DNA of 33,152 nucleotides from Gammaproteobacteria bacterium (GCA_050740915.1 JBOIEG010000118.1:1-33152), one strand, 5' to 3'; positions 1-31,872 are shown, counted from the first letter of the stretch. A program made the numbers and translations. Notes: a model not told the origin generated them from the letters alone.

Positions 1-299
1 TTGTCAGCCGGAGCGTTCGCAATGACGTTGGGAACGATTTTGGGTGTGATGATTTCAGCCATTCGCGCAAAGCGTTTAGCCCGAGCTTTGATCGCTTCAT
101 CCGGCCAGTTGAATTTCTCCCGCAGCACATTGGCGAGCTCGGCTACGATGTAGGGGGATATGAGGAGGGTATAAGTTCCTCTGAGGCCGTGTTCCCAAAT
201 TGCCCCAAGCTTTCCCTTGGGGTTTGTGAAGATAGAAATGTAGACATTGGTATCAAGGACAACTCTAAACCTTCCTTTTGGTCGTTTTTCTGTAATCAT
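1..299 (-). CDS. vapC: PIN-domain toxin (VapC-like); 3' end runs off the window
   Basis: Not on the ORF track because it is cut by the window edge. My minus-strand translation from ATG 299-297 is open to position 1: MITEKRPKGRFRVVLDTNVYISIFTNPKGKLGAIWEHGLRGTYTLLISPYIVAELANVLREKFNWPDEAIKARAKRFARMAEIITPKIVPNVIANAPAD. It has the VLDTNV acidic motif typical of PIN N-termini. It overlaps the upstream AbrB-type antitoxin by about 35 nt. Confidence 0.75.
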   Translation of the reverse strand, partial: MITEKRPKGRFRVVLDTNVYISIFTNPKGKLGAIWEHGLRGTYTLLISPYIVAELANVLREKFNWPDEAIKARAKRFARMAEIITPKIVPNVIANAPAD

Positions 300-648
300 C
301 AACCAACTTTTGCGCATCCTGTGGCTTAATGCCAAGCTTTTTAGCCTGGGCAGCTCCTAGAGCAAGAAGGCGCCTCTCCTCAGCATCCTCTTCGTTGCTA
401 CTCTTGGGGGCGCGTTTGCCTTCCTCTTTGGCCTCTTTGAGGACGTTTTTAACCCACTCCTCATCGTACCGATCGACTAGAGTTTTTGGTTTGAGAAGGA
501 TGCCGCCACGCACGGGTACCGCCTCAAGCAGGTCGCCTTCTTCAAGCTTCAGGTCACGTCGAAACTCCGCGGGGATGGTGACTTGTCCTTTGGTCTTTAC
601 CTTAACATAGGGCATGGGTTGTTCTCGAATAAGTGTTGATTGAGTCAT
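265..648 (-). CDS. vapB: AbrB/SpoVT(MazE-fold) antitoxin, VapB-like
   Basis: 127-aa ORF. The N-terminus VKVKTKGQVTIPAEFRRDLKLEEGDLLEAVPV is a swapped-hairpin AbrB/SpoVT motif. It sits directly upstream of the PIN ORF and overlaps it. Confidence 0.8.
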   Translation of the reverse strand: MTQSTLIREQPMPYVKVKTKGQVTIPAEFRRDLKLEEGDLLEAVPVRGGILLKPKTLVDRYDEEWVKNVLKEAKEEGKRAPKSSNEEDAEERRLLALGAAQAKKLGIKPQDAQKLVDDYRKTTKRKV

Positions 649-747: not shown

Positions 748-3057
748 TTAGTAATGTGTCGGTGGAGGCTCGTCTGAAGTTACATTTACTTTTTGGCTTG
801 CGGTTACACTTTTCAATCTTTCCTGCCTTTCACGAATCTCTTTCTCAACATCCTTGTAATATTTGCAGTAGCCCAGCGTCCTCATCTGTTTTTTTATCCT
901 CTCGATTCTTGCTGTTAACAGCTCACCATGCAACACACTAGGCAAGTCATTTGTTTTAATAACACATTCACCTGAGAGCAATTTCACTTTCGCTTGGAAA
1001 TTAGGCTGATTCGTAAGGTCTCTTGCGATCTCGTTTTCCATATCAGCGAATGTCCGGTTTTGATACTTTGGCTGATACTGTCCCGTATCAACTAGAACAG
1101 GCTCTTTCGCGAGAACCACCATTGTATATCTGAGTTCTCTTATCATCTTTACCAATCGAGAAGCAGACTCCATTTCCCGCTTGCTCTCACGTGTAACAGA
1201 ACCAAACAACCCCTTCTTCTGACGGGAATTGATAAATTTAGTTGAGTACTCTTGGTTAATAAAATATGGATCGCCAAACACAGCCGCTTCTTCTTTAAAC
1301 TCTTTCAAATCGTGATGGCCTGGTTCACAATACGGAGGAACCAAAAACCCAAGTTTGATAAAGGGATAAAAGGTTTCCTCACTTGCGTCTTGCTGGGAAA
1401 CAGAGAGCATGTATAGAGCAAGTGGAGGAATGAGAAAGTGAGAACTAGCCTCACTCATACAGCGGTACAAACTCCTATTTAACTCTTCCCTCCCTTGTCG
1501 AATATCACGGGCTGTTAGAGAGATAGTTAAATAACCCCAGTACACGAAGTAATAGTTATCCTGTGCAGTTCTAGCAATTAAGTTTTCAAAGTTTTGTAAA
1601 TACACCTGCGCAAAGTAAGTCGCTCTCACATCGTTATGCCCCCGTTTAACTAAGTGGGTTAGGACATCTGAAACAGGCGCACGCACTGGCTCTTCTCCCG
1701 CTATTTCTTTAGTTGGTGTAGTATCGAAACACTTCGCGAGTACTTTCCCGTCTTCTCCACTGACTCGAAAGACGATCATATTTCCAGCTGCAATAGCAGC
1801 AGTTCTATTAGCCTCATCCAACTGTGAAAGTGTTTGATGGGAAAGTGTTGTGGCGATACGAAATTTACGTGCTTCTGATATAAGAGTGGCGAAATCAGAG
1901 GTCGCGAAGCGCTGGTACTCGTCGCAAAAGAGATTAAACTGGCGACGGCTCGCCTCTGGCTGATCTGTTCTTGAAAACGCAGCCATCAAAAGTTTTCCTA
2001 CCAAGATTGCACCTATAAGCCTTGATGCTTCTTCAAACTGAGGAGACAATTTAACAAGGAGTATTTTCCCGCTGTCCATAACCTCCCGAAAACTTATCGT
2101 TGTCTTAGATTGACAAACAATATTTCTTATCATCGGCTCATCTAAGAAACTGGTAACCTTGTTCATAGTCGAGTCGGTGTAAAGAGCTTTATCCCGTGCA
2201 GACATACTATTGTAAACTTCCCAAAACGACACAATAGAACTATTACTAAGATTCGCAGCCATTCTCTCCCGCACAGAATCACTTGATAAAAGAATTGGAA
2301 TCTCGCTAAACGTTGTGCCAGGACACTCTATAAGGGTACGAGTTACAGCACGCAGTACCTGCATTAAACGCGGTGTGTCTGTCCCTGCCCCCCATACTTT
2401 AGCAAATACGTGAGAGACAAAATTAGCAGTTGAGGCCATTGTTTTTATGTTTCTAGGCTCAGGACACTGAAACAGATTAAGTCCAAAGGGATACTCACCC
2501 TCCATAATATCGAGTAGGACCACATCCTTTAACCTATTCTCAGGAATACCACCAATTACTGTTTTGGTTAAATCGCCGTGCGGCTCAATGAGACACACAC
2601 CTAACCCATGCTTAATGTCTGTCAGAATCAGGTTGGCAAGCAATGTTGATTTACCAGTTCCATTTGCACCTATGATATATAGTCCTTGTTGCCTTGCTTT
2701 CTGTGAGATAGCAACATCAATACCATTTTCTATATCTTTACCAATAATTGAATACAGCCCGCTGAAGTCAGCGTAATCCCCGACTGTTTCTGATCGCCTT
2801 GGTACAGTTCTGATTTCTTCTCTACGTACAGTTCTATTGTTAATCTTTTCTCCATCACGATGATCTTCTCTTTCCTTTCTCTTTATACCCCCCATCTCAA
2901 CCAATTTAGCGAATACTGCCAGTTTTGCCTCTTTTGTTAAAGAACGAATAACCTCCCGAGGGATTGGGCAACGCGGGTGATTTAACGCCTCATCAATGAG
3001 GCGAATCTTCTCGCTTTCTGGTATCGCATCGAATGGGTTTTTTACATCAGTAACCAT
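748..3057 (-). CDS. P-loop NTPase of the FtsK/HerA/TraD (coupling-protein-like) superfamily
   Basis: 769 aa. Walker A is IIGANGTGKSTLL, followed by CLIEPHGDL. Walker B-like motif is LFCDEYQRF, and TLSHQTLSQL lies downstream. This spacing is typical of hexameric DNA-translocase/HerA-type ATPases. Confidence 0.7.
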   Translation of the reverse strand: MVTDVKNPFDAIPESEKIRLIDEALNHPRCPIPREVIRSLTKEAKLAVFAKLVEMGGIKRKEREDHRDGEKINNRTVRREEIRTVPRRSETVGDYADFSGLYSIIGKDIENGIDVAISQKARQQGLYIIGANGTGKSTLLANLILTDIKHGLGVCLIEPHGDLTKTVIGGIPENRLKDVVLLDIMEGEYPFGLNLFQCPEPRNIKTMASTANFVSHVFAKVWGAGTDTPRLMQVLRAVTRTLIECPGTTFSEIPILLSSDSVRERMAANLSNSSIVSFWEVYNSMSARDKALYTDSTMNKVTSFLDEPMIRNIVCQSKTTISFREVMDSGKILLVKLSPQFEEASRLIGAILVGKLLMAAFSRTDQPEASRRQFNLFCDEYQRFATSDFATLISEARKFRIATTLSHQTLSQLDEANRTAAIAAGNMIVFRVSGEDGKVLAKCFDTTPTKEIAGEEPVRAPVSDVLTHLVKRGHNDVRATYFAQVYLQNFENLIARTAQDNYYFVYWGYLTISLTARDIRQGREELNRSLYRCMSEASSHFLIPPLALYMLSVSQQDASEETFYPFIKLGFLVPPYCEPGHHDLKEFKEEAAVFGDPYFINQEYSTKFINSRQKKGLFGSVTRESKREMESASRLVKMIRELRYTMVVLAKEPVLVDTGQYQPKYQNRTFADMENEIARDLTNQPNFQAKVKLLSGECVIKTNDLPSVLHGELLTARIERIKKQMRTLGYCKYYKDVEKEIRERQERLKSVTASQKVNVTSDEPPPTHY

Positions 3058-3693: not shown

Positions 3694-4473
3694 CTATTCA
3701 AGTTTTTCCCCTCCATCTTGCTCGAGAACCACAATACCTAAATCTGACTCAAGCCCTTTAAGCCAGGTCTGATCTTTCTCACGAACCAATTCGCTGACGA
3801 GAACCCATTTATCAGGTCCTTTCTGGATATCGCGGACTGACCTACCTTGGTTTCTCTTGTGAGCCTCTGATACTCTTTCTCGAGAAATCTTTTTCTCCTT
3901 GAGAAGAGATTTAATTGCCGCCGCTACTGTACTACGGCCCTTGGATCGGGTCTTTGTGTCAATTCCGACCTGCTTGGCTATCTCTGCATAGGAGTATCCA
4001 CAGACGTACATTGCTACGAAAAGCGGAGCCGCCCACTTTCCAAAAGTGCTCGGCATCTGGCTGCATCGTACATACGGCTTATTGCGACACGAGTTTTCCG
4101 CCGGGGGGTGTTCGTACCACACAGTCGTGCTATCTCGCAGCCAGCGCCACCCTGTCTGAAGGTCCTCAATGCCTTGGAGCCATACTAGCATGACCAAATT
4201 CCGATCGGTTGGAGATAATTTTTCTTGATCGCGCAGTTTCAGGCCTATTTTTTCTAGCTGCTTTCGGGGAACCACAAACCGTTTCGCTCGTTTCCCCTTA
4301 TAGCCTGCGGCTGGGTCTGCAAATTCGATCCGAGCATCACCCTCCTCAGTCGGGGTTATACGTAAATATCGCGTTAATAACCTCAAACGCTTTCCGCAGC
4401 TAGGGTTAGGGCAGTACCGGGGTTCAGTCGGGAAACAGCCCACCTGAGGGACAGCTAGTTCGAGGACTGTCAA
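3694..4473 (-). CDS. hypothetical protein with C-terminal HTH-like segment (putative regulator)
   Basis: 259 aa. CPNPSCGK knuckle near the N-terminus. YSYAEIAKQVGIDTKTRSKGRSTVAAAIKSL resembles a sigma70 region-4/LuxR-type HTH. The TTG start overlaps the TGA stop of the upstream gene (TTGA, 4470-4473), which suggests translational coupling. Confidence 0.5.
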   Translation of the reverse strand: MTVLELAVPQVGCFPTEPRYCPNPSCGKRLRLLTRYLRITPTEEGDARIEFADPAAGYKGKRAKRFVVPRKQLEKIGLKLRDQEKLSPTDRNLVMLVWLQGIEDLQTGWRWLRDSTTVWYEHPPAENSCRNKPYVRCSQMPSTFGKWAAPLFVAMYVCGYSYAEIAKQVGIDTKTRSKGRSTVAAAIKSLLKEKKISRERVSEAHKRNQGRSVRDIQKGPDKWVLVSELVREKDQTWLKGLESDLGIVVLEQDGGEKLE

Positions 4474-5408
4474 GGAAGACGAAACCTTCTATACAAGTTA
4501 ACTCTGGCCTCAAGCTCATCGGCGGTCAACGCTCTGAGACGTTCTCTTGGAAGATTTTTAATAGCCGCGAGAATCCCAGCCTCATCCTCTGCCTTTATCT
4601 GAATAGGCTTGAGGCTTGCGATGTCGAGGGGCCCAGTCGCCATCACGGTTTTCTGTCCATCCATCACCATGGTTCGTACACCTTCAATGACGATGACAAC
4701 CTCGAAATTCTTTGACTTGAAATTGGCGAGAGCAGAGAGAATTCGGCGATTCTCAAGAAGCATTCTGAAGCCGTGCAGCGTCCCAGCTGGCCCCAAACCA
4801 GCAACGCTAAAAACTGCCGGCGCATTGCCGTGAGGTCGAATCACTTTCAGGACAAACGCGTCCTCCTGCGAAACGCCATGTTTATCCAGCTCAGGACAAA
4901 AGATCTCTTGACCGCGCTCCTCATCCACGATTATTCGATAAGGCTCTAGGACTTCCTCGGCATTGATGCAAACCCTCATCTTCCTCTTTGAGGTATCAAA
5001 CTCGTGGACGAAATCCCCAATCATCGCTCTACCCACACGTTGCAGTTTTTCAGTGCCATGTCTGTCCCATATTCGAGCTAGAGGGCTAGACAACGGACTG
5101 CCTACGTTTACTGCAACATGTATCTGCCCACCCGGAACGCCAAGGAGAACCTTGGTTCGGCGCAATACGCGGGCGATATCCACCAGCGGTTGCAGGTTCT
5201 CCGGAATGGCCGACCGCTCGCCCATTACCAAATGACAGCGTCCCGAGTACAGTGCTATGCGACCGCCATCGGGCAATATTTCTCGCGCAATATGGGCGTT
5301 TTCCTCGACCCGTGCCCTATGTTCGACTTCTCCTGCGATATGTTCCTCGGACATATTGCGAACGCATAGGAGATGGCCTAGTAGCCCTGGAGTTACACAC
5401 TGTTTCAT
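4470..5408 (-). CDS. hypothetical protein, no assignable motif
   Basis: 312-aa ORF, first gene of a two-gene minus-strand operon divergent from the radical-SAM gene. I cannot recognise a family from the sequence. Confidence 0.5.
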   Translation of the reverse strand: MKQCVTPGLLGHLLCVRNMSEEHIAGEVEHRARVEENAHIAREILPDGGRIALYSGRCHLVMGERSAIPENLQPLVDIARVLRRTKVLLGVPGGQIHVAVNVGSPLSSPLARIWDRHGTEKLQRVGRAMIGDFVHEFDTSKRKMRVCINAEEVLEPYRIIVDEERGQEIFCPELDKHGVSQEDAFVLKVIRPHGNAPAVFSVAGLGPAGTLHGFRMLLENRRILSALANFKSKNFEVVIVIEGVRTMVMDGQKTVMATGPLDIASLKPIQIKAEDEAGILAAIKNLPRERLRALTADELEARVNLYRRFRLP

Positions 5409-5741: not shown

Positions 5742-7466
5742 ATGAGGAGAGTCATGGAAATCAATGCTGCCCTCCGGAGTCACCAAGTTGAGCGCTCTGA
5801 AGCTCCGACCCAACACACCTTAGTTGAAGCGACACCGGAAGAGATGCCCTTTAAAGGGATCAGTTGGATCGAAAATAAAACCATCTTGACACCAACCGGT
5901 GGCTTTTTGGCAAGCGGGTATACGCATACCCTAAACCCTTACGTTGGTTGTGGGTTTGCTGGGGCACTCTGCGGAACGTTTTGTTATGCCCAGCATCAGC
6001 ACTGGATTGTACGTGGCCGTCCTTGGGGATTCTATGGCGCAAGGCATGATATACGCCAAGCGTATCAGCGCGACTTTGACCGGATAAAGCGGCCATGGCA
6101 AGGAACCTCTCGCCCCTTGCGCGTTTACATGTCCTCCAGCACTGATCCCTATGTACCCCAGGAGAAGAAGCTGTGTCTTACGCTAGCCATCCTGGAAGAA
6201 AGGCAGACCCGTCCCCCTGACGTGCTTGTGATCCAGACTCATACCACGCTCATTAACCGCGATTTTGATCTCATTCAGCCGCTCTCAAAGCGATGTGAGC
6301 TCTGGGTCTCGATAACTTGCGAGACAGATAGGGGTCCCGTGCCCGGTTTCCCCCCACACGCCTCGCGACCGGCCAAGCGGCTGGAGACGCTCAAGCGCTT
6401 TCGCGAGGCCGGTGTGCCAACGCAGGCGACGATCAGTCCGCTCATGCCCTTGGCAGACCCGCAGACGTTTGCGCGTGCCCTCGATGCCGCCTGTGACCGG
6501 GTGGTTATTGATCATTATTTACTCGGCGACGGCAGTCACGGCGCTAGGACCAAGCGAACCAATTTTCTCCAGCTGCTGGAGCGGGCCGGCTTTGGCGAGT
6601 GGGCGAAGGTCGAGAAGATGTGGGAGGTGCACGACCTCCTGGCCGGCGTATTAGGGGCTGAGCGGGTTTTGGTAAGCGCCGAGGGGTTCAATGCGGTCGG
6701 GATCCAACGAAAACCTGTCCCTGCCATGCACATAATCCAAGAGGATAGGAATACCCTACCTAACCTCCCTGATTCACCACAGCCTGCCCAGCAGTGCACG
6801 GACACTGATACATCTACCCCGTCAGCTGAAGATATTCCCATTTTGCGTTTAAACCAGCAAAAAGATGCACCCAAAAATGTGTATGAGTCGCTGCGCGACC
6901 ATCAGCAATTAAAGTCCGAAAAACTGTGGTTACTGCACACCTACCTGCCTCTCATCATTGAGCGCTTCTACGGCACACTTCCCTTGCCAGCCCTGAGCGT
7001 TGAGCCAGCCCGCTTAGGGAATTTAGGTTGGTATCTAGAGAAAGATGGTCTTGCCCTGAACCACCGTATCAATTTGAACTGCATGTATGCCAACCGGCCC
7101 CTCGCTGAGGTTTTACGGACACTTACCCATGAGCTTGGCCACCAATGGCAGCATATCCATGGGAAGAACGGCAAGAACCGCTACCACAGTAACTACCACA
7201 ATAAACAGTTCCAACTCAAGATGCAGTCAATAGGTATCCCCTGCAATAAGCGGGGGGTTTCCCTTGGAATGCAGGAGCCTTTTATAAGTTTTCTCAAGAA
7301 GCTTGGAATCGAGGCAGAGATTTTCCCGTTTAAACAGGAAAACGATGAGTCACCTGTCAGTTCAGGCTCCAGATTAAAACCTTGGGCTTGTAGCTGCACG
7401 CGGGTCTGGGCTTCAGTTCGCGTTGAAGTAAAGGCGACCTGCAGCGAGTGCGGTAATCCATTTTAG
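5742..7466 (+). CDS. fusion protein: SplB/COG1533-like radical SAM domain + SprT-like zinc metalloprotease + C-terminal zinc ribbon
   Basis: 574 aa.
- N-terminal half: LNPYVGCGFAGALCGTFCYAQ (NPYxGC signature, Cys spacing Cx6Cx3C), SSSTDPYVPQE, VLVIQTHTTLINRDFDL, and PHASRPAKRLETLKRFREAGVPTQATISPLMP. These match the DNA-repair-photolyase type of radical SAM enzyme.
- C-terminal part: LTHELGHQWQH (HExxH) plus CSCTRVW...CSECGNPF, as in SprT.
- An alternative start is ATG 5754, after AGGAGA. Confidence 0.75.
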   Translation: MRRVMEINAALRSHQVERSEAPTQHTLVEATPEEMPFKGISWIENKTILTPTGGFLASGYTHTLNPYVGCGFAGALCGTFCYAQHQHWIVRGRPWGFYGARHDIRQAYQRDFDRIKRPWQGTSRPLRVYMSSSTDPYVPQEKKLCLTLAILEERQTRPPDVLVIQTHTTLINRDFDLIQPLSKRCELWVSITCETDRGPVPGFPPHASRPAKRLETLKRFREAGVPTQATISPLMPLADPQTFARALDAACDRVVIDHYLLGDGSHGARTKRTNFLQLLERAGFGEWAKVEKMWEVHDLLAGVLGAERVLVSAEGFNAVGIQRKPVPAMHIIQEDRNTLPNLPDSPQPAQQCTDTDTSTPSAEDIPILRLNQQKDAPKNVYESLRDHQQLKSEKLWLLHTYLPLIIERFYGTLPLPALSVEPARLGNLGWYLEKDGLALNHRINLNCMYANRPLAEVLRTLTHELGHQWQHIHGKNGKNRYHSNYHNKQFQLKMQSIGIPCNKRGVSLGMQEPFISFLKKLGIEAEIFPFKQENDESPVSSGSRLKPWACSCTRVWASVRVEVKATCSECGNPF

Positions 7467-7604
7467 AGAAAGTAACTGGTGAAAGAAAGGAGATGATCGT
7501 AAACCTTACAGTTTTTGTCCTACGCGTAAACCGCGCACACTTCGGCCAACCCACGAGAGCGCGCCAACCCAGCGCGTCTGTTCTTCAACCAGGAGGTTAC
7601 TACT

Positions 7605-8294
7605 GTGGCTAGACGCAAACGCACTATCGTTGATGTTGATGGCAATGTTATCGTTACCGACTCCGACACCACCATACGCACCGCCCTTGAGCAGGCTGGG
7701 ATAGCAAATGATGTGGTAAGCGTGGTAAGCGGTGGTGAGATCATCACCGCAGAGGACTTTGACCGCCCTGCTCCAGCCCACGGGATGTTGACTAACCAGA
7801 CCGATATAGAGAAAGGCGGGGCTACGCTTCGTGAGCGTCTGCTTAATCGGGAGTTCGACCTAATCGCCCGCTTCTTAAGCACCTTTACCGGCAGGAAACG
7901 CTCCCTTGAGCTTGACGATACCTACCTTCTCATCCGCGCTTTCCCTCTCCCCGATTCCTACGCAACGGATTACGTCGATCTCTTGTTTGTCATCAGCGGT
8001 TATTACGACCTGCCTCCTGGAGGTCTGCACATCCCCTCTAAAACCCCCAACCGCGAACAGATAGTCAAGCACCTTGGCGGCCATGTGCAGGTCAACTCAT
8101 CACACGTACTCAACCACACCCCTGCAAGTTACCGTAAAACTGTAGATCAGCTTGCCCAGCTCGGCTGGGACTGGATATGTCTACACCACAAAAATTGGTC
8201 GTGGAAGTTCAACCCCGAGAGCCTCCTCTCAGGAGATTGCCTTTTCAAGTTCGTTGAGAACGTTTTTATAGCACTCTCAGGCAAGCTCAAGTAG
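7605..8294 (+). CDS. ubiquitin-like (beta-grasp) domain fused to an E2/UBC-like domain
   Basis: 229 aa with a GTG start 9 nt after AGGAGG (7590-7595). Residues about 7-52 (TIVDVDGNVIVTDSDTTIRTALEQAGIANDVVSVVSGGEIITAEDF) look like a ThiS/multi-ubiquitin type beta-grasp. They are followed by IEKGG (Gly71-Gly72). The rest is UBC-like: YYDLPPGGLHIP, WDWICLHH (candidate catalytic Cys192), WKFNPESL. The gene is 8 nt upstream of a JAB-E1 gene. Confidence 0.6.
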   Translation: MARRKRTIVDVDGNVIVTDSDTTIRTALEQAGIANDVVSVVSGGEIITAEDFDRPAPAHGMLTNQTDIEKGGATLRERLLNREFDLIARFLSTFTGRKRSLELDDTYLLIRAFPLPDSYATDYVDLLFVISGYYDLPPGGLHIPSKTPNREQIVKHLGGHVQVNSSHVLNHTPASYRKTVDQLAQLGWDWICLHHKNWSWKFNPESLLSGDCLFKFVENVFIALSGKLK

Positions 8295-8302
8295 GGTAAG
8301 CC

Positions 8303-9856
8303 ATGAACAAGCCTACTCATCCTAAGAAAGTCATCATCCGCTTCACTGCCCGTGCTTATGAGCGGGTAAGGCGGCTTCTGCTCAAGGACGAAAATGAGCA
8401 GATGTGTTTTGTCTTTGCCCATGTGGTCGAGACCCCAACCCCAAACCGCCTAGTATTTCTTTGCGATTACGTTTTACAGCTACATGATTCCTGCTACCTT
8501 AAGCGCACCCCAACATCCGTAGTCCTAGACCATCGAGCCAAAAACATAGTCTACGCTCGCTTCGCAGCCAGCACCTATGACGGGCTTCTTAACATCCACT
8601 CGCACCCCTTCGACAAAGGAAGAGTTGCCTTTTCCTCAAAAGATGATGAAGACGATTTGCGTGAAATCGCTTGGCAGTATGAACAACTGCCCCGAGGAAA
8701 AAGAGCCTACGGCAACCCAAGAAAAGTTCATTGCCTTTCTATGGTATTTGGCCAGAGAAGCCTTGACGCAAGAGGTCTTACCTGCCGGCATCTAGGCTTC
8801 CAAGAAGGTCTCTGCCCTCCCTTTTACCGAATTGAACAAGTACAGATTCTTGGCGAGAAACTTTCCGTTATAACGCCAACAGGAGCCACCAATTCACCAA
8901 CTCTTTCTTCTTCTGACCGCATAACGTATGACCGGCAAATTCTGGCGTTTGGAGCAGAAGGGCAAAAAACCCTTGGCTCCCTCCATATCAGCTTAATCGG
9001 AACTGGTGGGATCGGAAGTATCCTTGGAGAAGGTGTCTGCCGTATGGGGGTCAAGACCCTTACCCTCATAGACCACGACCTGTTATCTCCTCACTCGTTA
9101 AATCGTTGGCAAGGAGGTCGTCCTTCCGACATAGGCAAACCCAAAGCGCAGGTTTTGGCAACACACCTCAGGAGGATGTTTCCGGGCATAAAGGTTACAT
9201 CTATTGCAAAGCCCCTCACCCATCCTAAGGCGCTTAAGGCCATTAAGGGCGCAGATTTCCTTCTTGCAGGAGTCGACAACCACCAAGCCCGTTGGCTCTT
9301 GAACAGAATTTCAGCCCAATTCCTCATCCCGTATCTGGACGGAGCAACAGTCATCGCAAAGGGAAAGGGGGAAGCCAACAACCGCATGCAGCTTTTCTAC
9401 CGGTTAGCTGTCGTAGTACCCGGTATAACTGCATGCCTTTCCTGCAGCCAGATCAAATATTGGAATCATCAAGAAGATATTGCTCCCTATCTCTACGATC
9501 CAATAACCCGTTCCCGGCTTCAGGTATCAGGCTACATCCAAGACCATCCAGAGGAACAGGCACCCTCTGTTATGCCGCTTAACATGCTGGTTGCCGCATC
9601 AGTTCTTCTCGAACTTCTAAACCTTGTAACAGACTATGCTCCATTAGCTCGCAATGTGGCAGTTGATCACCTCTCCCCCAATCACACAACAGTGCGATCA
9701 GACACTAAAAACTTCCCTGAAGGCCCGGCCGAGGATTGTATTTCCTGCTTCGCACTTCTGGGTAAAGGCAACAGCGAACCCTTGCCCGTGATCGACATGC
9801 CTGCCCTTACAGAGTCCCAAATTGATAACCATTTCCCCCTTGCTGCCAATGAATAG
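8303..9856 (+). CDS. JAB/MPN metallopeptidase fused to ThiF/MoeB-type E1 adenylyltransferase
   Basis: 517 aa.
- JAMM-like motif: ENEQMCFVFAH ... NIHSHPFDKGRVAFSSKDDEDD (E, HxH, SxxD).
- E1 part: YDRQILAFGAEGQKTLGSLHISLIGTGGIGSILGEGVCRMGVKTLTLIDHDLLSPHSLNRW (Rossmann GxGGxG plus the D.D...NLNRQ-like motif), VDNHQARWLLN, and two CxxC pairs (CLSC, CISC). Confidence 0.8.
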   Translation: MNKPTHPKKVIIRFTARAYERVRRLLLKDENEQMCFVFAHVVETPTPNRLVFLCDYVLQLHDSCYLKRTPTSVVLDHRAKNIVYARFAASTYDGLLNIHSHPFDKGRVAFSSKDDEDDLREIAWQYEQLPRGKRAYGNPRKVHCLSMVFGQRSLDARGLTCRHLGFQEGLCPPFYRIEQVQILGEKLSVITPTGATNSPTLSSSDRITYDRQILAFGAEGQKTLGSLHISLIGTGGIGSILGEGVCRMGVKTLTLIDHDLLSPHSLNRWQGGRPSDIGKPKAQVLATHLRRMFPGIKVTSIAKPLTHPKALKAIKGADFLLAGVDNHQARWLLNRISAQFLIPYLDGATVIAKGKGEANNRMQLFYRLAVVVPGITACLSCSQIKYWNHQEDIAPYLYDPITRSRLQVSGYIQDHPEEQAPSVMPLNMLVAASVLLELLNLVTDYAPLARNVAVDHLSPNHTTVRSDTKNFPEGPAEDCISCFALLGKGNSEPLPVIDMPALTESQIDNHFPLAANE

Positions 9857-10802
9857 TACTCACGAGAAGAAGCAGCCTAACAAAGGCACCAAGCCATATA
9901 TTTTGACCAAGGCCACGGAACGAATCCTAAGAGCCGCCCATTTTTATCGCTTTCTGACAGCTCTTGACTTCGCAACCCTTCTTTACAGCCCTTCCTCTTT
10001 AACCTATGCGCGCGCGCTCTTATCCGAGCTTGCCGGAGGGGAGGATTTCAAGACCAACGAGTATCTCTATAGATTCAAGTTGCCCAACGGGACATCAAAT
10101 GGCAGCAGAATATATACCCTCGGAGTTAAAGGCAGAAACTATTTAGTAAGTGAGCTGGGCTTACCTGCTGATTGGTATTTCAGACCCCATAAATTGAAGT
10201 ATCTTAGCTATTGTCAGGCTGATCATAACCTCAGCCTTGCCCGTTTTCAAATTTCAGCCCAAGCCTGGGCTAAGAAGCAACCCAATTACCGCATCGCGCA
10301 CATCCGTATTTGTTACGAACTTGCCCAAACAGCACCTATTATCGAGATCACCACACAAGGCAAAACAGAAAGACTCAAAGTCATACCGGACGCGTGGGTA
10401 TGTTTTCAAAAACTCAGGGACGGCAGTGGTGAGCATGAACGTTTTATGCCAGTCCTGCTGGAGCTAGATCGCGGAACAGAGCACCAGCTCCGCTTCAAAC
10501 AACATGTGCGCTCCAAGATCGCCTTTATTCAAACGGGCGCCTATAGGCAGCTCTTCCACACCAATGCAGTAGTGATCGCCTACGTGACCACAGGACAAAC
10601 ACCTGACTATCAGCGCACAAGGAGAAAAGCCATTTGCCGCTTCACAATGGAAGTATTAAAAGAACTCGGAAAGGAATCCTGGGCTTCCATATTTCGCATC
10701 ACCAGCACTAGTCTTGAGCATATCTATGAGACGCCTTTTTTTGATGCACCCATCTGGTACCGGCCTGATTCGGACACGCCAGTGCCCCTTTTCACTCCCT
10801 AA
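9849..10802 (+). CDS. Replic_Relax (replication-relaxation) family-like protein
   Basis: The ORF-track frame opens at 9822, but the first ATG is 9849 (MNSTHEKK). It overlaps the E1 stop (9854-9856) by 8 nt. ILRAAHFYRFLTALDFATLLYSPSSLTYARALLSELA resembles the N-terminal wHTH signature of Replic_Relax proteins found on plasmids. Confidence 0.5.
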   Translation: MNSTHEKKQPNKGTKPYILTKATERILRAAHFYRFLTALDFATLLYSPSSLTYARALLSELAGGEDFKTNEYLYRFKLPNGTSNGSRIYTLGVKGRNYLVSELGLPADWYFRPHKLKYLSYCQADHNLSLARFQISAQAWAKKQPNYRIAHIRICYELAQTAPIIEITTQGKTERLKVIPDAWVCFQKLRDGSGEHERFMPVLLELDRGTEHQLRFKQHVRSKIAFIQTGAYRQLFHTNAVVIAYVTTGQTPDYQRTRRKAICRFTMEVLKELGKESWASIFRITSTSLEHIYETPFFDAPIWYRPDSDTPVPLFTP

Positions 10803-10834: not shown

Positions 10835-11188
10835 ATGACAAACCTTGACCAAATTCAAACCATTTCAAGCGACCAGCTGACCTTAATGCAAAACAAAATC
10901 AACAAAGAACTTGAGAAGCGCTCTGGCCAAGACATAGACATTAAGAAAATCCGGAGCCAAGCCTACAAACTTGCCAAAGCCTTAGGCTGCGAATGGATAG
11001 CCGACAGTTATCCCAAAGAGAGCATACAGGACACAGACAAACCCAACAGGAGGGGAAGAAAACCAAAGACTGACGAAAAAGCAGAAACCCCAGTGGCTAC
11101 TCAAACCAAACTACAAGAGGCCACCTCGCCGATTGGCAACACTTCTCCCGAGGAGGAGAAGCGAGAATCCTCCCTATGGCCTTTATAG
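10835..11188 (+). CDS. small AT-hook (RRGRKPK) protein, possible nucleoid-associated/silencer-like; paralog of 20720-20980
   Basis: 117 aa, with AGGAG 6 nt upstream of the ATG. It has an N-terminal helical segment and then DKPNRRGRKPKT. It is about half identical by eye to the 86-aa product of 20720-20980. Confidence 0.6.
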   Translation: MTNLDQIQTISSDQLTLMQNKINKELEKRSGQDIDIKKIRSQAYKLAKALGCEWIADSYPKESIQDTDKPNRRGRKPKTDEKAETPVATQTKLQEATSPIGNTSPEEEKRESSLWPL

Positions 11189-13067: not shown

Positions 13068-13089
13068 ATGTTTGTTGAAACTTTGGATT

Positions 13090-13374
13090 ATGCAAATGAC
13101 CACCAAAACCATGCATATCTCTCTGCCTGGGTCCCTGATCGAATCGGCAAAGCTACAGGTAGAGGAGGGAAAATTTAGCAATGTCAGCGATTATGTGCGC
13201 TCCCTCATTCGCGAGGATTTACGAAGGCACGAAGAACAAAAGCTAGAACAGATGCTACTCGTTGGGGTGCGCTCCGAGCGTGGGATGGAAGTTGGCTCAA
13301 AGGAATGGAAGGAGTTTCGCAAACGCTTGGTAAGACAAAGCCCGCAACAAAGTAAAAAAACCCAAGAAGCATGA
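13090..13374 (+). CDS. parD: ParD-family (RHH/CopG) antitoxin
   Basis: MQMTTKTMHISLPGSLIESAKLQVEEGKFSNVSDYVRSLIREDLRR matches the ParD/COG3609 pattern. The ORF-track frame opens at a TTG (13072). The ATG at 13090 or 13096 is the more likely start. The stop overlaps the toxin start (ATGA). Confidence 0.8.
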   Translation: MQMTTKTMHISLPGSLIESAKLQVEEGKFSNVSDYVRSLIREDLRRHEEQKLEQMLLVGVRSERGMEVGSKEWKEFRKRLVRQSPQQSKKTQEA

Positions 13375-13703
13375 AAAGATGGAGGGTACTCACCAAACGA
13401 CAAGCCGAAGAAGACACTAACGAAATCTACTCCTACATTGCCCGGGATAGCCCCCAAGCCGCAGAGGGCTTTTTAGATGCTATAGAACAAGCCTCTTCAA
13501 TTCTCTCTACTACCCCTGAGATTGGCTCCTCTCGTTATTTTCACCATCCTGAGCTACACGGACTTCGCTTCTACCCCCTCAAAAGGTATGAAAAATACCT
13601 TTTGTTTTATCGCACTGTGGAAGAAGAGCACGTTGTTGAAATAGCGCGCATCATCCATGGCGCACGGGACTTACCAACACTCTTTGGTCAGGAACAAAAC
13701 TGA
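13371..13703 (+). CDS. parE: ParE/RelE-family toxin
   Basis: 110 aa. QAEEDTNEIYSYIARDSPQAAEGFLDAIEQ ... YLLFYRTVEEEHVVEIARIIHGARD is the typical ParE layout. It is translationally coupled to parD. Confidence 0.8.
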   Translation: MKRWRVLTKRQAEEDTNEIYSYIARDSPQAAEGFLDAIEQASSILSTTPEIGSSRYFHHPELHGLRFYPLKRYEKYLLFYRTVEEEHVVEIARIIHGARDLPTLFGQEQN

Positions 13704-18486: not shown

Positions 18487-20025
18487 ATGAAACGCTTTCT
18501 TTATATCCTAAGTACAGTTTTAAGTTTTCTTGGCAGCTGCTTTTCGAAGACTCATTCATTACACAATGCCCGCTTTGCCCGCCTTGATGAACTAACAAGT
18601 CTTGTGAGCCATACCCTTGATGAGGGAGGATTGCTTTTGGGAATAAGCTCATTCAACCAAATTCTTCGAGTACGTCTTACCAAGACACGCCCAGAGCTGG
18701 GCAACACACTCATCGTGGCGCCAACCCGCGGTGGCAAGGGACTACTTGCTGTGAGTCAACTTTTAACTTGGCCGCATTCAGTTGTGGTTAATGACATCAA
18801 AGGCGAGCTCTATGACCAGACCGCTGGCTACCGGGCAACTCTTGGCCCAGTCTTTTGTCTTGATCCACGGGGTTTGGGCCATTGCTTCGATCCTCTGCAT
18901 ACCCGCACTGACGAGGATGAGTTATATGCAGCAGCAAAAAACCTGTTGCATGAACCCCATGAGACTGATGGTAAGCCGTTTACCGAGCGGGCTATTAAAA
19001 TGCTCACCCTCATGTGGCTTGCCGCCAGAAAGCAAAACGAGCATTCTTATGAGCAAACCCGCCTGCTGCCATTTACCAGAAATTTAGCTGATCTTGGTTT
19101 AAATCGCGCTGTCCCAATAATCCACGCGATCTCACCCGCCTTAGCTACCCGTATGTTTGATGGGGAATACATACCAGAGCATGACTACAATGAGAATAAA
19201 TATTTGTCTTCATCCTGGGAATCCTTAACAGCCCGTCTCTACCCTCTTCTAACCGAAAAAGTTGCCCGCTGTTTTAATGGCTCGGATTTCACCGGAGCGG
19301 ACATCATCACCTCCACTAAACCTATTACAATTTATTTATGTTGGCCTGAGTCCGCGCTTCTTGCCAAAGCGCCTCTCATTCGGCTGGTGTGGGAATCTTT
19401 GATTGGGCAGATGCTTGATACCTATGACAGAGCCAAAGGGGAGGCCTGCCATCCGGTATTACTCCTTCTTGATGAGGCAGGCACCGTTACTCTTCCCAGT
19501 CTTCCCCAATATGTCGCAACGGTTGCAGGCCGGGGCATTTGCGTGTGGGCTGCCATTCAAGACCTCTCGCAGCTTGAGCTTTATGGCATGCATAAGGCCA
19601 AAACCATCAAAAACAATATGGATACTAAAATCTATTACCGACAAGCATCAAGTGAAACCGCAGAGTACCTCGAGCGCTCTCTAGGCAAACAATCAGGCTT
19701 CGCCCACTCCCAAACACTACACGATGGACAAGAGGAGAGTCAGGGACTTTCAGAGCATGCAGTACCCCTTCTTACGGCCAGAGACATCAATGAGCTTAAT
19801 CATGATGAAATTATCGTTTTTTTCTCCAACCACAAGCCCTTCAGAGCCAAAAGAATGGACTGGCGAGCCTTTCCAATCCTGACACAACGACGCGCAATTC
19901 CCCCTCCCAAACTTGCCACCCTTCCAGAACTTGAGTCAAACCCTTTCTACTTAAGAACAAAAAGCACGTGGAAGGGGAGAGCCATTGACCCAGACGATCT
20001 TAATCCTTATGAGAAGCTAAATTGA
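18487..20025 (+). CDS. type IV coupling protein (VirD4/TraG family)
   Basis: 512 aa. LIVAPTRGGKGLLAVSQLLTWPHSVVVNDIKGELYDQTAGYR matches the VirD4 Walker A region. LLLLDEAGTV is the Walker B. Confidence 0.85.
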   Translation: MKRFLYILSTVLSFLGSCFSKTHSLHNARFARLDELTSLVSHTLDEGGLLLGISSFNQILRVRLTKTRPELGNTLIVAPTRGGKGLLAVSQLLTWPHSVVVNDIKGELYDQTAGYRATLGPVFCLDPRGLGHCFDPLHTRTDEDELYAAAKNLLHEPHETDGKPFTERAIKMLTLMWLAARKQNEHSYEQTRLLPFTRNLADLGLNRAVPIIHAISPALATRMFDGEYIPEHDYNENKYLSSSWESLTARLYPLLTEKVARCFNGSDFTGADIITSTKPITIYLCWPESALLAKAPLIRLVWESLIGQMLDTYDRAKGEACHPVLLLLDEAGTVTLPSLPQYVATVAGRGICVWAAIQDLSQLELYGMHKAKTIKNNMDTKIYYRQASSETAEYLERSLGKQSGFAHSQTLHDGQEESQGLSEHAVPLLTARDINELNHDEIIVFFSNHKPFRAKRMDWRAFPILTQRRAIPPPKLATLPELESNPFYLRTKSTWKGRAIDPDDLNPYEKLN

Positions 20026-22778: not shown

Positions 22779-24692
22779 ATGGATAAGGAATCTAACCAGT
22801 TTACCATTCAAAGCAAGGAATTATCACAGCTTGAACAACTGCTAAATAAAGAAATGGCAGGTGCCCAAGTGGTACTTCTTACAGGCAGCACTTCACTTTG
22901 GCACATGAACGAAGGTTTGTTACGAAATGTAGCGACAGGCCGCCTCGCCGATCCTCAAAGAACGAAGATCAACAGTGCTTCTCTTTATGAACGGAACGAT
23001 TATTGGGAGAAAAGAGGCACGCGACCGGATAAACGGCTCCATGAGTGGCAGACTAACATGGATACTTATCTCAAGAAGCAACTTCAAGATGAAGAGAAAC
23101 GTAATCTGTTGGAAAGAATTCTGAAACGACATAATCAAACTCCTGATGAGGTAGTCGTAAACGCGGAAACTATCTATAACAGACTCATGGTAGATCAAAA
23201 AGGAGATGTTGAATTTTTTGCCAGAAGACTGAGTAGAGAAGATATTAAACAACACGCAGAAGTCATCCAGGAATTCGCGGGTATCTATGGGCAGAATTCA
23301 AGCAAAATAGCCAAAATACTTGCCGAGGGAATAATAAACGCTAACGACCAGCCTTGCGCACTTATCGACTCAGCCCAAAGAGAGTTAAGCGATGAAGAGC
23401 GAATTATACTTGAGACACTTGACCTGCACGCGCAAGCCAAAGAGAAAAAATATCTAGGGCAAATCGCGAAAGCTCAAACAAGGTATCAGGAGCAGCCGGC
23501 TTTACGAGAGGTGGCGCAGCAAACAAAAAGTGAGCCCCATAAAGCCAGGGAAGAACTTAGGCAATTGGTGGAGGAAGACGTCGGAGTTTGCACAGAAACA
23601 GATAAGGGGCAAGACGCATACTTCGCGGATACCGAAAACGCGATTTTTGGTGTGTTTGACGGAGTAGGAAGTTATAGGCATAGTGGTGAAGCTGCTAATA
23701 TAGCTAGTGAGCACATTAACGTCGCCCTAGCAGGCATTGAAAGCAATCTGGATCTTGATAAAACAAAACATACAGTAAGGGACGCGCTTATACAAGTAAG
23801 TGAGGAAATAAATGAAGAGGTAGTAACACGATATAAAATCGTAGAAGAAGACATAAGGAAAAACATTGCAGGAAATTTATCAGACGACGATTTTGACAAT
23901 AAATATAAACCAAGAACTGAATATGATAATAGTTCCATAAGCAAATGGATAAAAGGAGAACTTGACGCAGCTGAGCCAACAGAACGTTTGTATAATGGTT
24001 TAACAAGCTATATCCATGGTTGGATCAAGAAACAAGTAACTATGGCTACAACCGCCTCCGTAGTCAAACTGTGGCAGGGAGAAAATGGAGATAAACAAGC
24101 AATCATCGCTAATGCAGGAGACAGCAGGGTTTATGTATATAAGAATAAAGAGGATAAACTGGAGATAATAACTATCGATGATAACTTTCTCTACGAGGTT
24201 GTGGATGGACATAAAGCAAGAGAGATACAGAAGGCATTAGGCAATGGAGCAAAGATCAAGGATGTTCTGGCAGAAGAGACGGTTGTACTTAAAGAATCAA
24301 ATCCACTACACAAGAAGTTGTGGACATTTCATCATGGCACGATATGGAATGAAAAAGATTATCGTTTTTGGCAAAATGGAGAAGTAGAAGTACCGCTTAA
24401 AAACATTAGCTCTTTTGCAATGACGAGGCAAATCCCATTTGTAGGTACAGAACCAACTATAAAGCAAATAAAAATCGCATCAGGTGATAGGATTGTAATG
24501 ACGACTGATGGTGTTCACGACAATTTACGCACATCAGAAATTGAAGAAATAATTAGAAACAACCCAGACCCAATCGAGGCAGCTAATGCGGCAAAAAGAA
24601 AATTAGACGACATACGAGAATTAGCGCGGACATTGAAAGGCAGAAGCTATAAAGCAGACGATATAACGTTTGTTGTTATCGCCATAAACTAA
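22779..24692 (+). CDS. PP2C-family Ser/Thr phosphatase with an unassigned ~280-aa N-terminal region
   Basis: 637 aa. PP2C motifs appear in order: FGVFDGVGSYRHSGEAANIAS, ANAGDSRVYVY, MTTDGVHDNL, ADDITFVVIAI. Confidence 0.8.
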   Translation: MDKESNQFTIQSKELSQLEQLLNKEMAGAQVVLLTGSTSLWHMNEGLLRNVATGRLADPQRTKINSASLYERNDYWEKRGTRPDKRLHEWQTNMDTYLKKQLQDEEKRNLLERILKRHNQTPDEVVVNAETIYNRLMVDQKGDVEFFARRLSREDIKQHAEVIQEFAGIYGQNSSKIAKILAEGIINANDQPCALIDSAQRELSDEERIILETLDLHAQAKEKKYLGQIAKAQTRYQEQPALREVAQQTKSEPHKAREELRQLVEEDVGVCTETDKGQDAYFADTENAIFGVFDGVGSYRHSGEAANIASEHINVALAGIESNLDLDKTKHTVRDALIQVSEEINEEVVTRYKIVEEDIRKNIAGNLSDDDFDNKYKPRTEYDNSSISKWIKGELDAAEPTERLYNGLTSYIHGWIKKQVTMATTASVVKLWQGENGDKQAIIANAGDSRVYVYKNKEDKLEIITIDDNFLYEVVDGHKAREIQKALGNGAKIKDVLAEETVVLKESNPLHKKLWTFHHGTIWNEKDYRFWQNGEVEVPLKNISSFAMTRQIPFVGTEPTIKQIKIASGDRIVMTTDGVHDNLRTSEIEEIIRNNPDPIEAANAAKRKLDDIRELARTLKGRSYKADDITFVVIAIN

Positions 24693-24750
24693 TCTTCTTA
24701 AGTGGATACCCACTTCTTCTTAAAGATGTGCTGTCCGTCGATATACCCAC

Positions 24751-26763: not shown

Positions 26764-27330
26764 TTATGTTCCCCCCGTGTTGATGTAGCGGTATAACGTT
26801 GCTCTGGAAACATTGAGCATTTTGCAAATCTCATCGATGGTATTGTTTTTGTCATTATAAAGCGATTGCGCCAGGGTTATTTTTTTTGGTGTATTGAGGG
26901 ATTTCGCTTTTGGTCTGCCGCCTAACCTTCCTCGCGCTCTAGCAGCTTGCAAGCCTGCGTTTGTCCGTTCTCTAATTACATCTCTCTCAAATTCCGCCAG
27001 TGCTCCAAAAATATAAAAGACGAGTTTCCCTCCTGATGTTGTTGTATCAATATTCTCCGTAATACTCTTAAACCCGATTTTTCTATTGTTAAGTTTTGTA
27101 ACTGTTTCAATGAGATGCTTGAGGGAGCGGCCAAGCCTATCCAGTCGCCAGACAACGATCGTATCTCCTTCTCGAACATACTTAAGCGCTTCTTCTAATC
27201 CAATGCGCTCTGCTTTTGCTCCACTTGCAGTATCTGTGAAGATACGGCTAACACCTATTTTCTCAAGCGCATATTTTTGAAGATTTAATGTTTGATCTGA
27301 TGTGGAAACACGAGCATAACCAATAAGCAT
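26764..27330 (-). CDS. serine recombinase, Hin/Gin invertase-like (resolvase/invertase family)
   Basis: 188 aa. MLIGYARVSTSDQ (catalytic Ser), VVWRLDRLGRSLKHL, ALAEFERDVIRERT, GRLGGRPK, and a C-terminal HTH (VSRATLYRYI). By eye it is closer to Hin/Gin than to gamma-delta resolvase. Confidence 0.9.
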   Translation of the reverse strand: MLIGYARVSTSDQTLNLQKYALEKIGVSRIFTDTASGAKAERIGLEEALKYVREGDTIVVWRLDRLGRSLKHLIETVTKLNNRKIGFKSITENIDTTTSGGKLVFYIFGALAEFERDVIRERTNAGLQAARARGRLGGRPKAKSLNTPKKITLAQSLYNDKNNTIDEICKMLNVSRATLYRYINTGGT

Positions 27331-30273: not shown

Positions 30274-30324
30274 TATCTCCTAACAGTATACCACCAACTC
30301 TACTGTTCGGATCCGAAATTGAAT

Positions 30325-31276: not shown

Positions 31277-31289
31277 CGAACTTCTCAGC

Positions 31290-31535
31290 CGAACGCTCGC
31301 AGTCGCTGTGATCGACGTCCGTATTGTCGGCTACGATGGCCCCGATATAGCTCGGGTGCCGGGCTTCAACCCGGAAGTGTCGAGTTCCTTCTCCCTCCGC
31401 GCAAAGGGTTGGCTCACTCGCATTCACAACCTCGACCCCGATGGTCGCGGCGCAAGCGACTCCTCCGCTAAAAGCAACGGTCACCACCGCGACAACAAAC
31501 ACGAAGGGTGAAAAAGAAAAAGCGCTTTTTGTCAT
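31290..31535 (-). pseudogene. 5' fragment of a signal-peptide protein gene truncated by the IS remnant
   Basis: The N-terminus MTKSAFSFSPFVFVVAVVTVAFSGGVACAA is a signal peptide. The ORF then runs into IS1182-like sequence around 31280-31300. The junction position is approximate. Confidence 0.3.
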
Positions 31536-31872
31536 AATGTCATCGCATCAGGCCTGCAACTCAAGCCGGGAGGCCAGTCGTGGCGTAGAAAAAACCCAGA
31601 GAGCCCCCTTATCTCGGTTAATGTTAATAAAAAAACAACTTCGAGTGTTGTGCTGCGGTGATTGAGGAACCGATCAGAACAGAAACCCGTTTTCGGCGGC
31701 GGATCGCCGTTGGCCTTTTGTATGTCGTATTCAACACTCAAGCGGCCGAGCTGCGGCTCGATACGATCCGCCTCCCTTTGGGTTTTCATATCGCCGTGTT
31801 TGCGCGCGTTCCGCAGGCCCGTACGATGGCGTTGAGCCCAAGCGGTACTCTATATGTGGGCACGGGGTCTAA

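Follow-up and report, generated by a model that had tools for sequence, protein, structure and literature searches.

Type I Bub operons, formerly 6E.1 or DUF6527, encode BubAB, BubCD, and BubE (Ye, Gong, Chambers & Corbett 2024, 10.1101/2024.11.21.623953; PDB 9EA4, 9EA5, 9EA8, 9EAE, 9EAV). Their architecture, a ubiquitin-like protein (Ubl) fused to an E2 and a JAB peptidase fused to an E1, has been solved and reconstituted: BubCD cleaves BubAB after a conserved glycine, its homodimeric E1 uses the crossover-loop residue Tyr370 (Y370F abolishes conjugation), and the E2 employs Ser333 with His335 and Asp299, so that all intermediates are oxyesters (10.1101/2024.11.21.623953). The resulting isopeptide conjugates are removed by BubE, a Ser-His protease found in every Bub operon (10.1101/2024.11.21.623953). 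The same neighborhood had already been listed by Iyer et al. (2006) as row 6e, with the E2 termed 'inactive' (PMC1779556). Bub operons occur in mobile elements and defense loci together with DNA-damage-responsive regulators. Here, we analyzed a stretch of 33,152 nucleotides (nt) from a Gammaproteobacteria bacterium (GCA_050740915.1, JBOIEG010000118.1:1-33152), called the window in the following, in which two adjacent genes (genes 2 and 3) very probably encode a Ubl conjugation system that is a homolog of Type I Bub. The system is of a known kind (Bub, 6E) in an undescribed variant: its E2 is of the cysteine type, BubE was not found within the sampled flanks, the Ubl is distinct, and the pair is fixed in a putative MOB_C mobilization operon with a SprT or radical-SAM/SprT gene. 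No paper on this variant, or on SprT or radical S-adenosylmethionine (radical-SAM) proteins tied to bacterial Ubl systems, was found in the literature.

Genes 1 to 3 are co-directional and separated by exactly 138 nt (genes 1 and 2) and 8 nt (genes 2 and 3). Since each has full-length homologs of 50-80% identity in soil and other metagenomes, the three are real genes and not chance open reading frames (ORFs). The gene 3 protein is also encoded on a 31-kb contig of assembly GCA_050741755.1. A scan of the window for promoters and terminators gave a result no better than chance. An earlier note on this DNA, made from the sequence, had placed the three genes where the ORF list has them and quoted their spacing and motifs, all of which the translations bear out; profile and structure comparisons likewise agree with its domain calls (beta-grasp and E2 with Cys192, JAB and E1, radical SAM with SprT and zinc ribbon), and its placement of the E2 near Prok-E2_E was upheld. 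It had also taken the two-gene fused format to be uncharacterized; this does not hold, as the format is that of Type I Bub (6E.1), described by Iyer et al. (2006) and Ye et al. (2024).

The product of gene 3 is a JAB-E1 fusion like BubCD. Its AlphaFold2 (AF2) model (pLDDT 86, pTM 0.86) was compared with the PDB using Foldseek, and the eight best matches were all Citrobacter BubCD structures (top 9ea4; E 2e-32 to 2e-28, TM 0.72/0.82, about 500 columns), while UBA5, ThiF, and MoeB ranked far below and matched the E1 half only. The fold is thus shared with BubCD over the whole length, and the JAB domain superposes on the BubC domain. The gene 3 sequence profile matched BubCD 9ea4 with an E-value of 6.2e-82, and hhalign gave a probability of 100% against a BubCD-like protein of a Mesorhizobium plasmid; identity to BubCD proteins is only 21-28%. 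At the family level, ThiF (PF00899) was found on residues 209-465 (E 1e-40), the E1 domain matched the PADLOC E1-E2 models (E 4.5e-16), the JAB domain alone matched no PADLOC model, and the distant homolog P0104 carries Pfam Prok-JAB (PF14464) and ThiF. The full JAMM motif (E32, H99, H101, S111, D114) is invariant across 40 homologs with identities as low as 25%, E32, H99, H101, and D114 corresponding to BubCD E28, H91, H93, and D104. Equally invariant in the 40 sequences is Tyr411 of the crossover loop, the G-Y411-I motif being aligned to BubCD Y370 (residue numbers in the PDB chain are shifted by two). The only conserved cysteines of the E1 are the two CxxC zinc ligands, and none is conserved in the crossover loop; this Cys4 zinc site is shared with the Mesorhizobium homolog but missing from Citrobacter BubCD. 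In PLSDB, gene 3 matches were all below 30% identity, and the six loci examined are 6E/Bub-type Ubl/E2/JAB-E1 operons; no gene 2 protein match was obtained there. A scan of representative genomes returned only five relatives (33-38% identity), all from metagenome-assembled genomes.

The relationship of gene 2 to Bub was reached via a large profile search followed by profile-profile comparison. The protein has no match in Pfam, NCBIfam, or PADLOC scans. When 1.84 billion representative proteins were searched with the profile, only 111 relatives were found, either fused (~215-245 amino acids, aa) or E2-only (~145-165 aa); short matches (51-116 aa) are mostly truncated fragments, but P0255 and P0299 resemble stand-alone Ubls. 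Prok-E2_E (PF14462) was matched by 6 of 73 relatives (best E 1.2e-9), the window protein itself lying below any Pfam model, and the family profile searched against all PDB sequences found Citrobacter BubB as the sole match at E <1 (E 4e-4). When the E2 half was compared with a profile of seven Bub-type E2s collected from PLSDB plasmid loci, hhalign gave a probability of 96.6% (E 6.9e-10, 121 columns); against a single Bub E2 the value was 4% and uninformative. In the profile alignment, W-I-C192-L-H194 sits on the Bub motif W-F-S-W-H, so that Cys192 and His194 take the places of Ser333 and His335. At the nucleophile position, 70 of the 73 relatives have Cys and none has Ser, His follows two residues on in 56 of 73, and Trp190 is present in all 73. 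Judged from these alignments, the C-terminal domain of gene 2 is homologous to the Bub/Prok-E2_E E2s, with a putative nucleophile that is Cys in the window and Ser in Bub.

The N-terminal part of gene 2 is a beta-grasp in the AF2 model (pLDDT 86), which shows this fold at residues 1-64, followed by a helix, a four-stranded sheet, and further helices. Foldseek found weak matches of the beta-grasp to ThiS, ubiquitin, NEDD8, and TGS domains (E 0.02-0.05, probability 0.8-1.0, target-normalized TM 0.4-0.7), and the whole gene 2 model returned beta-grasp matches only. In contrast to Bub, which has one to three Ubl domains, the window Ubl is a single short beta-grasp. As in Bub, a conserved glycine marks the junction to the E2: K70 and G71 are invariant across 35 close homologs. 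Among split relatives, the stand-alone Ubl ends exactly at KG in the SAR324 locus L006 (...IIKG*) and in L016 (...INKG*), and P0255 and P0299 carry a three-residue tail past KG (...KKGGIHA and ...EKGCCV). Since the KG pair is invariant, split Ubls end there, and BubCD cuts after the equivalent glycine, Gly71 is the most likely JAB cleavage site and would form the C-terminus of the mature Ubl.

By comparison with Bub, the conjugation cycle would proceed as follows. The JAB domain of gene 3 would cut the gene 2 pre-protein after Gly71 to give a Ubl of 71 residues and an E2 of 157; the E1 domain, which is homodimeric in Bub, would adenylate Gly71, and the Ubl would pass via Tyr411 to the E2 and end on target lysines. 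The E2 intermediate at Cys192 is predicted to be a thioester, where Bub forms an oxyester. Taking cleavage at Gly71, the Tyr411 intermediate, and the Cys192 thioester together, we lean towards all three being right. The predicted lysine linkage through an E2 cysteine thioester resembles that of the Bil system (BilABCD) and of Cap2/Cap3 of type II cyclic-oligonucleotide-based anti-phage signaling systems (CBASS), which also comprise E1, E2, and JAB activities and whose JAB peptidase matures or removes the modifier, as we predict here. However, Bil and Cap2/Cap3, whose anti-phage roles have been demonstrated, both lack the JAB-E1 fusion as well as the crossover-loop Tyr, and in Cap2, unlike in the window proteins, E2 is fused to E1 and the conjugated protein is the CD-NTase itself, without a Ubl. 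The combination of a Cys-type E2 with a Tyr-type E1 offers a natural experiment on whether oxyesters or thioesters came first and on the hand-off from a Tyr ester to a Cys.

A further difference from Bub is the absence of BubE. None of the 26 window ORFs scanned with Pfam contains DUF6527 (PF20137). A hidden Markov model (HMM) built from five BubE proteins recovered BubE in six of six reference Bub loci having a downstream flank, one of them previously unannotated, but gave no match at E <1 for the window or some 20 related loci, where the absence holds within the sampled flanks, several contigs being short. Deconjugation, if it occurs, would then fall to the JAB domain or to another protease. 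No CapW, CapH/CapP, CapK/CapS, or other defense-island markers were seen near the cassette. A haloarchaeal locus (L033; Salinigranum marinum plasmid NZ_CP100464.1, 2046-4401) encodes an 86-aa protein ending in ...YVFG*, an E2/UBC protein, and a JAB-E1 fusion; its E2 has the Cys active-site motif WTKYCIHH (WTKYCIHHVRWNP), and DUF6527 is not annotated nearby. Cys-type, BubE-less relatives of Bub therefore exist beyond the clade of the window.

Bub and the window pair are both located on mobile elements, but the window pair lies within an operon for a relaxase and a coupling protein. The probable ATG start of gene 4 (9849) overlaps the stop of gene 3 (ATGAATAG) by 8 nt, the mechanical ORF call starting at TTG 9822, and genes 2, 3, and 4 as read from these junctions are translationally coupled, which joins the pair to the putative relaxase gene. 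Gene 4 matches Replic_Relax (PF13814) with an E-value of 2e-5 and 25.0 bits, just under the cut-off of 25.3, and its L026 homolog scores above the E 1e-5 mark. Replic_Relax proteins are relaxases of the MOB_C class and have a PD-(D/E)XK fold (PMC5357655, PMC3424549). Gene 5, which follows gene 4 after 32 nt, has a counterpart of 49% identity at the corresponding place of L009. Neighborhoods were scored by tblastn and called genes. In each of the six informative loci (window, L003, L009, L011, L014, L026), the pair is followed by Replic_Relax. Homologs of the 769-aa coupling ATPase of the window (60-65% identity) directly follow Replic_Relax in L003, L011, L014, and L026, and in the window and L001 the ATPase gene lies upstream of the pair on the other strand; this ATPase is the usual partner of Replic_Relax in the plasmid family. 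The relative in L004 (38% identity) has coupling-protein and relaxase genes as neighbors too, within a conjugative element. The closest conserved linkage of the pair is thus to relaxase and coupling-protein genes. Gene 4 and the ATPase resemble MOB_C modules in their matches to Replic_Relax and a coupling ATPase, and no description of such a module bearing a Ubl conjugation cassette was found in the literature.

The earlier note had not considered this linkage. It had placed the radical-SAM/SprT gene at the head of the cassette, and the survey shows this partnership to be more than incidental to the window: in 7 of the 10 informative loci, the gene immediately before the pair encodes SprT, with or without the radical-SAM domain. 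Its plasmid setting was confirmed as well (ParA, ParE, MazE, coupling proteins, Replic_Relax, resolvase), whereas its reading as a Ubl-directed effector for defense or anti-defense is hypothetical. Divergently upstream of the cassette, L001 (8620-9905) and the P0057-bearing 12.5-kb contig carry a gene for an XRE-type helix-turn-helix protein (186-199 aa) together with a gene of 515-518 aa, and L003 contains a 505-aa gene similar to the latter. In L001, a YbjN-like 150-aa gene directly precedes the Ubl-E2 gene, in the place of SprT.

Gene 1 combines a predicted radical-SAM domain with a SprT-like protease domain and a zinc ribbon. Residues 36-258 match the NCBIfam radical-SAM models PA0069 (E 1e-19), mobile pair B (E 6e-14), and Rv2578c (overall range 1e-19 to 9e-12), all under the full-length cut-offs of the models. 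The cluster motif has the spacing CX6CX3C (C70, C77, C81; G-C70-GFAGAL-C77-GTF-C81-Y-A at 5947-5984 of the window, residues 69-81) in place of the canonical CX3CX2C. This spacing is kept in all close homologs, including many stand-alone 316-aa 'DNA repair photolyase' proteins at 60-70% identity; the distant relatives P0192, P0194, and P0195 have the canonical spacing. PF10263 matches 10 of 10 members of the gene 1 family (Pfam E ~1e-6 to 1e-8), the isolated domain of the window reaches 26.9 bits (gathering score 25.6), and HELGH...YH, comprising the HExxH and a downstream His, is invariant. In the distant protein P0192, SprT precedes radical SAM, and because this is an independent fusion in reverse order, a functional link between the two domains is supported. 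SPRTN and Wss1 are eukaryotic SprT-type HExxH proteases that act on DNA-protein crosslinks and are guided by ubiquitin or SUMO, and ArdC is a SprT-fold protein of conjugative plasmids, a trait shared with gene 1. The window SprT, by comparison, adjoins Ubl genes, and its sequence link to these proteins is weak: human Spartan is the best PDB sequence match, spanning HExxH...H (E 0.095), no ubiquitin-binding motif was identified in gene 1, and its SplB-like radical-SAM fusion has no counterpart in SPRTN, Wss1, or ArdC.

We also surveyed the slot between the radical-SAM/SprT gene and the transfer genes, taking homologs of gene 1 with 60-80% identity and the stretch up to Replic_Relax or the ATPase, which yielded a small sample of nine slots (Table 1). 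E1/JAB-type sets of three lineages occupy six of the nine, and a HORMA/AAA set occupies one more. The L027 set contains an E1 with a solid PADLOC E1-E2 match (E 2e-17), its JAB, E2, and Ubl calls being based on motifs and weak PADLOC matches. In L035, these calls are motif-level, the 179-aa protein giving weak PADLOC E2 matches (E 0.003). Genes 2 and 3 have no significant similarity to either set. Typical defense cargo, such as restriction-modification or toxin-antitoxin systems, was not seen in the slot. The slot is variable yet biased, and its contents resemble two classes of CBASS accessory regulators.

Table 1. Features of the window and of related loci (window coordinates unless a locus is named; domain functions as predicted).
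Feature	Locus	Position	Strand	Remarks
Gene 1	window	5742-7466	+	574 aa, ATG start (ORF list)
Radical-SAM domain, SplB/COG1533-like	gene 1	~aa 36-320
Disordered linker	gene 1	~aa 325-395		proline- and acid-rich
SprT-like HExxH zinc protease (predicted)	gene 1	~aa 395-500		HELGH at 451-455
Zinc ribbon CxC...CxxC	gene 1	aa 552-571		C-terminal, motif conserved
Shine-Dalgarno AGGAGG	window	7591-7596	+	8 nt 5' of gene 2 GTG; read from sequence
Gene 2	window	7605-8294	+	229 aa, GTG start (ORF list)
Ubiquitin-like beta-grasp (predicted)	gene 2	7605-7817	+	aa 1-71, ends Lys70-Gly71
E2/UBC-like domain (predicted)	gene 2	7818-8294	+	aa 72-229, Bub/Prok-E2_E lineage
Putative catalytic Cys192	gene 2	codon 8178-8180	+	motif W-I-C-x-H
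Gene 3	window	8303-9856	+	517 aa, ATG start (ORF list)
JAB/JAMM metallopeptidase (predicted)	gene 3	8303-8887	+	~aa 1-195
ThiF/E1 adenylation domain (predicted)	gene 3	8888-9856	+	~aa 196-517; GTGGIGS, R268, D325
Cys4 zinc site (two CxxC)	gene 3	C378, C381, C479, C482
Crossover-loop Tyr411	gene 3	codon 9533-9535	+	invariant, G-Y-I-Q-D
Gene 4, putative Replic_Relax relaxase	window	9849-10802	+	MOB_C-class, PD-(D/E)XK-fold, PF13814
Gene 5	window	10835-11188	+	117 aa, no family match
TrwB/FtsK-like coupling ATPase	window	748-3057	-	769 aa; Pfam TrwB_AAD_bind, T4SS-DNA_transf
Radical-SAM/SprT upstream of pair	window, L009, L026, 12.5-kb contig with P0118/P0010/P0057
SprT only upstream of pair	L003			249 aa
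SprT C-terminus at contig edge, upstream of pair	L013, L015
No SprT upstream of pair	L001 (= L002 = L008), L007, L010
Slot with Bub-like pair	window, L009, L026, 12.5-kb contig
Slot with unfused set	L027	7135-9363		79-aa protein ending ...VGC*, 132-aa protein, 264-aa protein with HSH...S..D motif, E1
Slot with Ubl remnant and further set	L035	7828-9712		gene 2 Ubl remnant, 179-aa protein, 298-aa protein with JAMM-like motif, start of ThiF gene
Slot with HORMA/AAA set	P0139 contig (JGI 3300047160)			AAA protein (TRIP13-like set) and bacHORMA_2 protein before Replic_Relax
Slot with small ORFs	L034			six small ORFs, no assigned family
Slot with insertion sequence (IS) elements	L025

Considering the locus as a whole, we think it likely that the pair is a Bub-like conjugation machine working within a plasmid DNA-transfer operon, where it would tag a DNA-bound protein or a component of the transfer apparatus, with the SprT protein in the same pathway. 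Because the coupling to the relaxase operon is conserved, proteins of the transfer apparatus and DNA-bound proteins are the first candidate targets, and the most likely role of the Ubl would be to tag one of them during plasmid transfer or establishment. Whether the SprT protein would act in the same pathway as Ubl tagging or is a mere neighbor is about evenly balanced, and that the Ubl might direct the protease is something we can only infer. Several observations weigh against this proposal. No biological role or target of Bub is known as of 2026. The beta-grasp assignment rests on a model with weak Foldseek scores (E ~0.02), and hhalign found no sequence similarity between the gene 2 Ubl and five Bub 'multiubiquitin' (PF14452-type) Ubls (probability 0.3%). 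The close loci L001, L007, and L010 lack an upstream SprT gene; in the distant relatives L016 (5718-6959) and L021 (5272-7005), at ~30% identity, the E2 gene is directly preceded by one for a DUF4407 membrane protein (the Ubl gene of L016 being downstream of its JAB-E1 gene); and in L006 no mobile-element gene was found within the flank examined. Neither SprT nor transfer genes are therefore obligatory for the E2/JAB-E1 core. As to the task of SprT, MOB_C relaxases have a nuclease fold and are not known to form a tyrosyl-DNA adduct; the idea that SprT clears a relaxase adduct is weakened accordingly and should not be assumed.

An alternative that we rate as rather unlikely is that the adjacency is positional, the radical-SAM/SprT and relaxase/coupling-protein genes being backbone and the Bub-like pair interchangeable cargo, for instance for stress or anti-phage functions, that acts independently of SprT and of transfer. 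Slot content indeed differs among plasmids that share the radical-SAM/SprT gene at 60-80% identity, and the pair is found without SprT in L001, L007, and L010. However, the cargo is not random: E1/JAB sets of three unrelated lineages and one HORMA/AAA set fill most of the slots, the usual defense cargo was not seen among them, and both kinds of set are CBASS accessory-regulator classes, which argues for a shared functional requirement. The translational coupling of genes 2, 3, and 4 also speaks against independent cargo.

The cassette could instead serve anti-phage or anti-plasmid defense like Bil, type II CBASS, and, by hypothesis, Bub, with the Ubl placed on invader proteins and the radical-SAM/SprT protein as an effector damaging or processing invader DNA or protein. 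The company of Bub relatives in mobile elements and defense loci, the PADLOC match of the E1 domain, the pairing of distant relatives with DUF4407, a predicted membrane protein and possible effector, and the frequency of defense cargo on plasmids would all suit such a function. We nevertheless consider it unlikely, as gene 2 and the JAB domain of gene 3 alone match no PADLOC model, the CapW, CapH/CapP, and CapK/CapS regulators are missing nearby, phage protection has been reported for no Bub operon, and the cassette is coupled to a relaxase operon and not placed in a defense island. Beta-grasp, ThiF-type E1, JAB, and radical-SAM proteins are also the parts of thiamin, molybdopterin, and CysO pathways (PMC1779556), and the E1 retains a ThiF/MoeB-like Cys4 zinc site, which would fit a sulfur-carrier, cofactor, or nucleoside-modification pathway of the ThiS/MoaD-ThiF/MoeB type in which a thiocarboxylated beta-grasp feeds the radical-SAM enzyme without conjugation. 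This is highly improbable: sulfur transfer has no use for an E2 whose Cys-x-His is near-invariant, neither a rhodanese domain nor a sulfurtransferase is present, the E1 is specifically BubCD-like and has the catalytic Tyr, Bub proteins make isopeptide conjugates, and the radical-SAM domain is optional, L003 encoding SprT only.

Going beyond a conjugation machine in a transfer operon, the radical-SAM/SprT protein with the MOB_C relaxase and ATPase could form a DNA-processing core that is switched by interchangeable Ubl sets (at least three lineages) or HORMA/TRIP13-like sets, the Ubl marking a DNA-bound protein for SprT and the Cys-type E2 with its Tyr-type E1 representing an intermediate mechanism. 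We regard this extended proposal as doubtful. If true, the switched core would mirror the use of Cap2/Cap3 or HORMA/TRIP13 by CBASS, and the system would be a bacterial counterpart, in conjugative transfer or establishment, of ubiquitin- or SUMO-directed proteolysis by SPRTN and Wss1; the enzymes would then stand between thioester ubiquitination and the all-oxyester Bub mechanism. Judging from the recurrence of E1/JAB and HORMA/AAA sets in the slot, accessory regulators of the CBASS style may control further enzymes besides nucleotide cyclases. The clade offers a functional handle on Bub, namely candidate substrates and phenotypes in transfer, establishment, and the processing of DNA-bound proteins.

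The remaining contents of the window, which include a MazE-like antitoxin, a ParE toxin, two ParA proteins, a TraG/VirD4 coupling protein, the TrwB/FtsK-like ATPase, a resolvase, and Replic_Relax, fit the backbone of a plasmid or conjugative element. No DNA match to the window was found among PLSDB plasmids, and the PLSDB matches of window proteins, with ParA, the coupling proteins, and gene 1 among the queries, were all below 40% identity. The two coupling-protein genes are distinct, the divergent 769-aa ATPase gene and a canonical 512-aa TraG/VirD4 gene (18487-20025, +), which suggests two DNA-transfer modules or a mosaic backbone. The MazE-like antitoxin domain protein is encoded at 265-648 (-), and the ParE toxin, within 13072-13703 (+), is preceded by an overlapping 100-aa ORF that is likely its antitoxin. 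A serine resolvase and an HTH_38 (IS30-type) protein are encoded at 26764-27330 (-) and 29548-30273 (-). In the last 3 kb (30000-33152), the GC content rises from ~0.41 to 0.56-0.59, suggesting an inserted or mosaic segment. At 22779-26442 (+), a 637-aa PP2C/SpoIIE-type phosphatase adjoins a 563-aa protein with a weak protein-kinase match; the two are possibly a Ser/Thr signaling pair carried on the plasmid.

Upstream of gene 1, a divergent gene pair (3694-5408, -) encodes a 312-aa protein without family match and a 259-aa protein with a sigma-70 region 4-like helix-turn-helix. The two were considered as CapK/CapS-like regulators and rejected, having no STAS or GHKL domain and no BLAST match to the corresponding pair of L027. 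At the equivalent place, that locus has a comparable pair, made up of a 347-aa gene and a sigma-70-like gene of 210 aa, without BLAST similarity to the window pair. The 312-aa and 259-aa proteins may be regulators of the operon.

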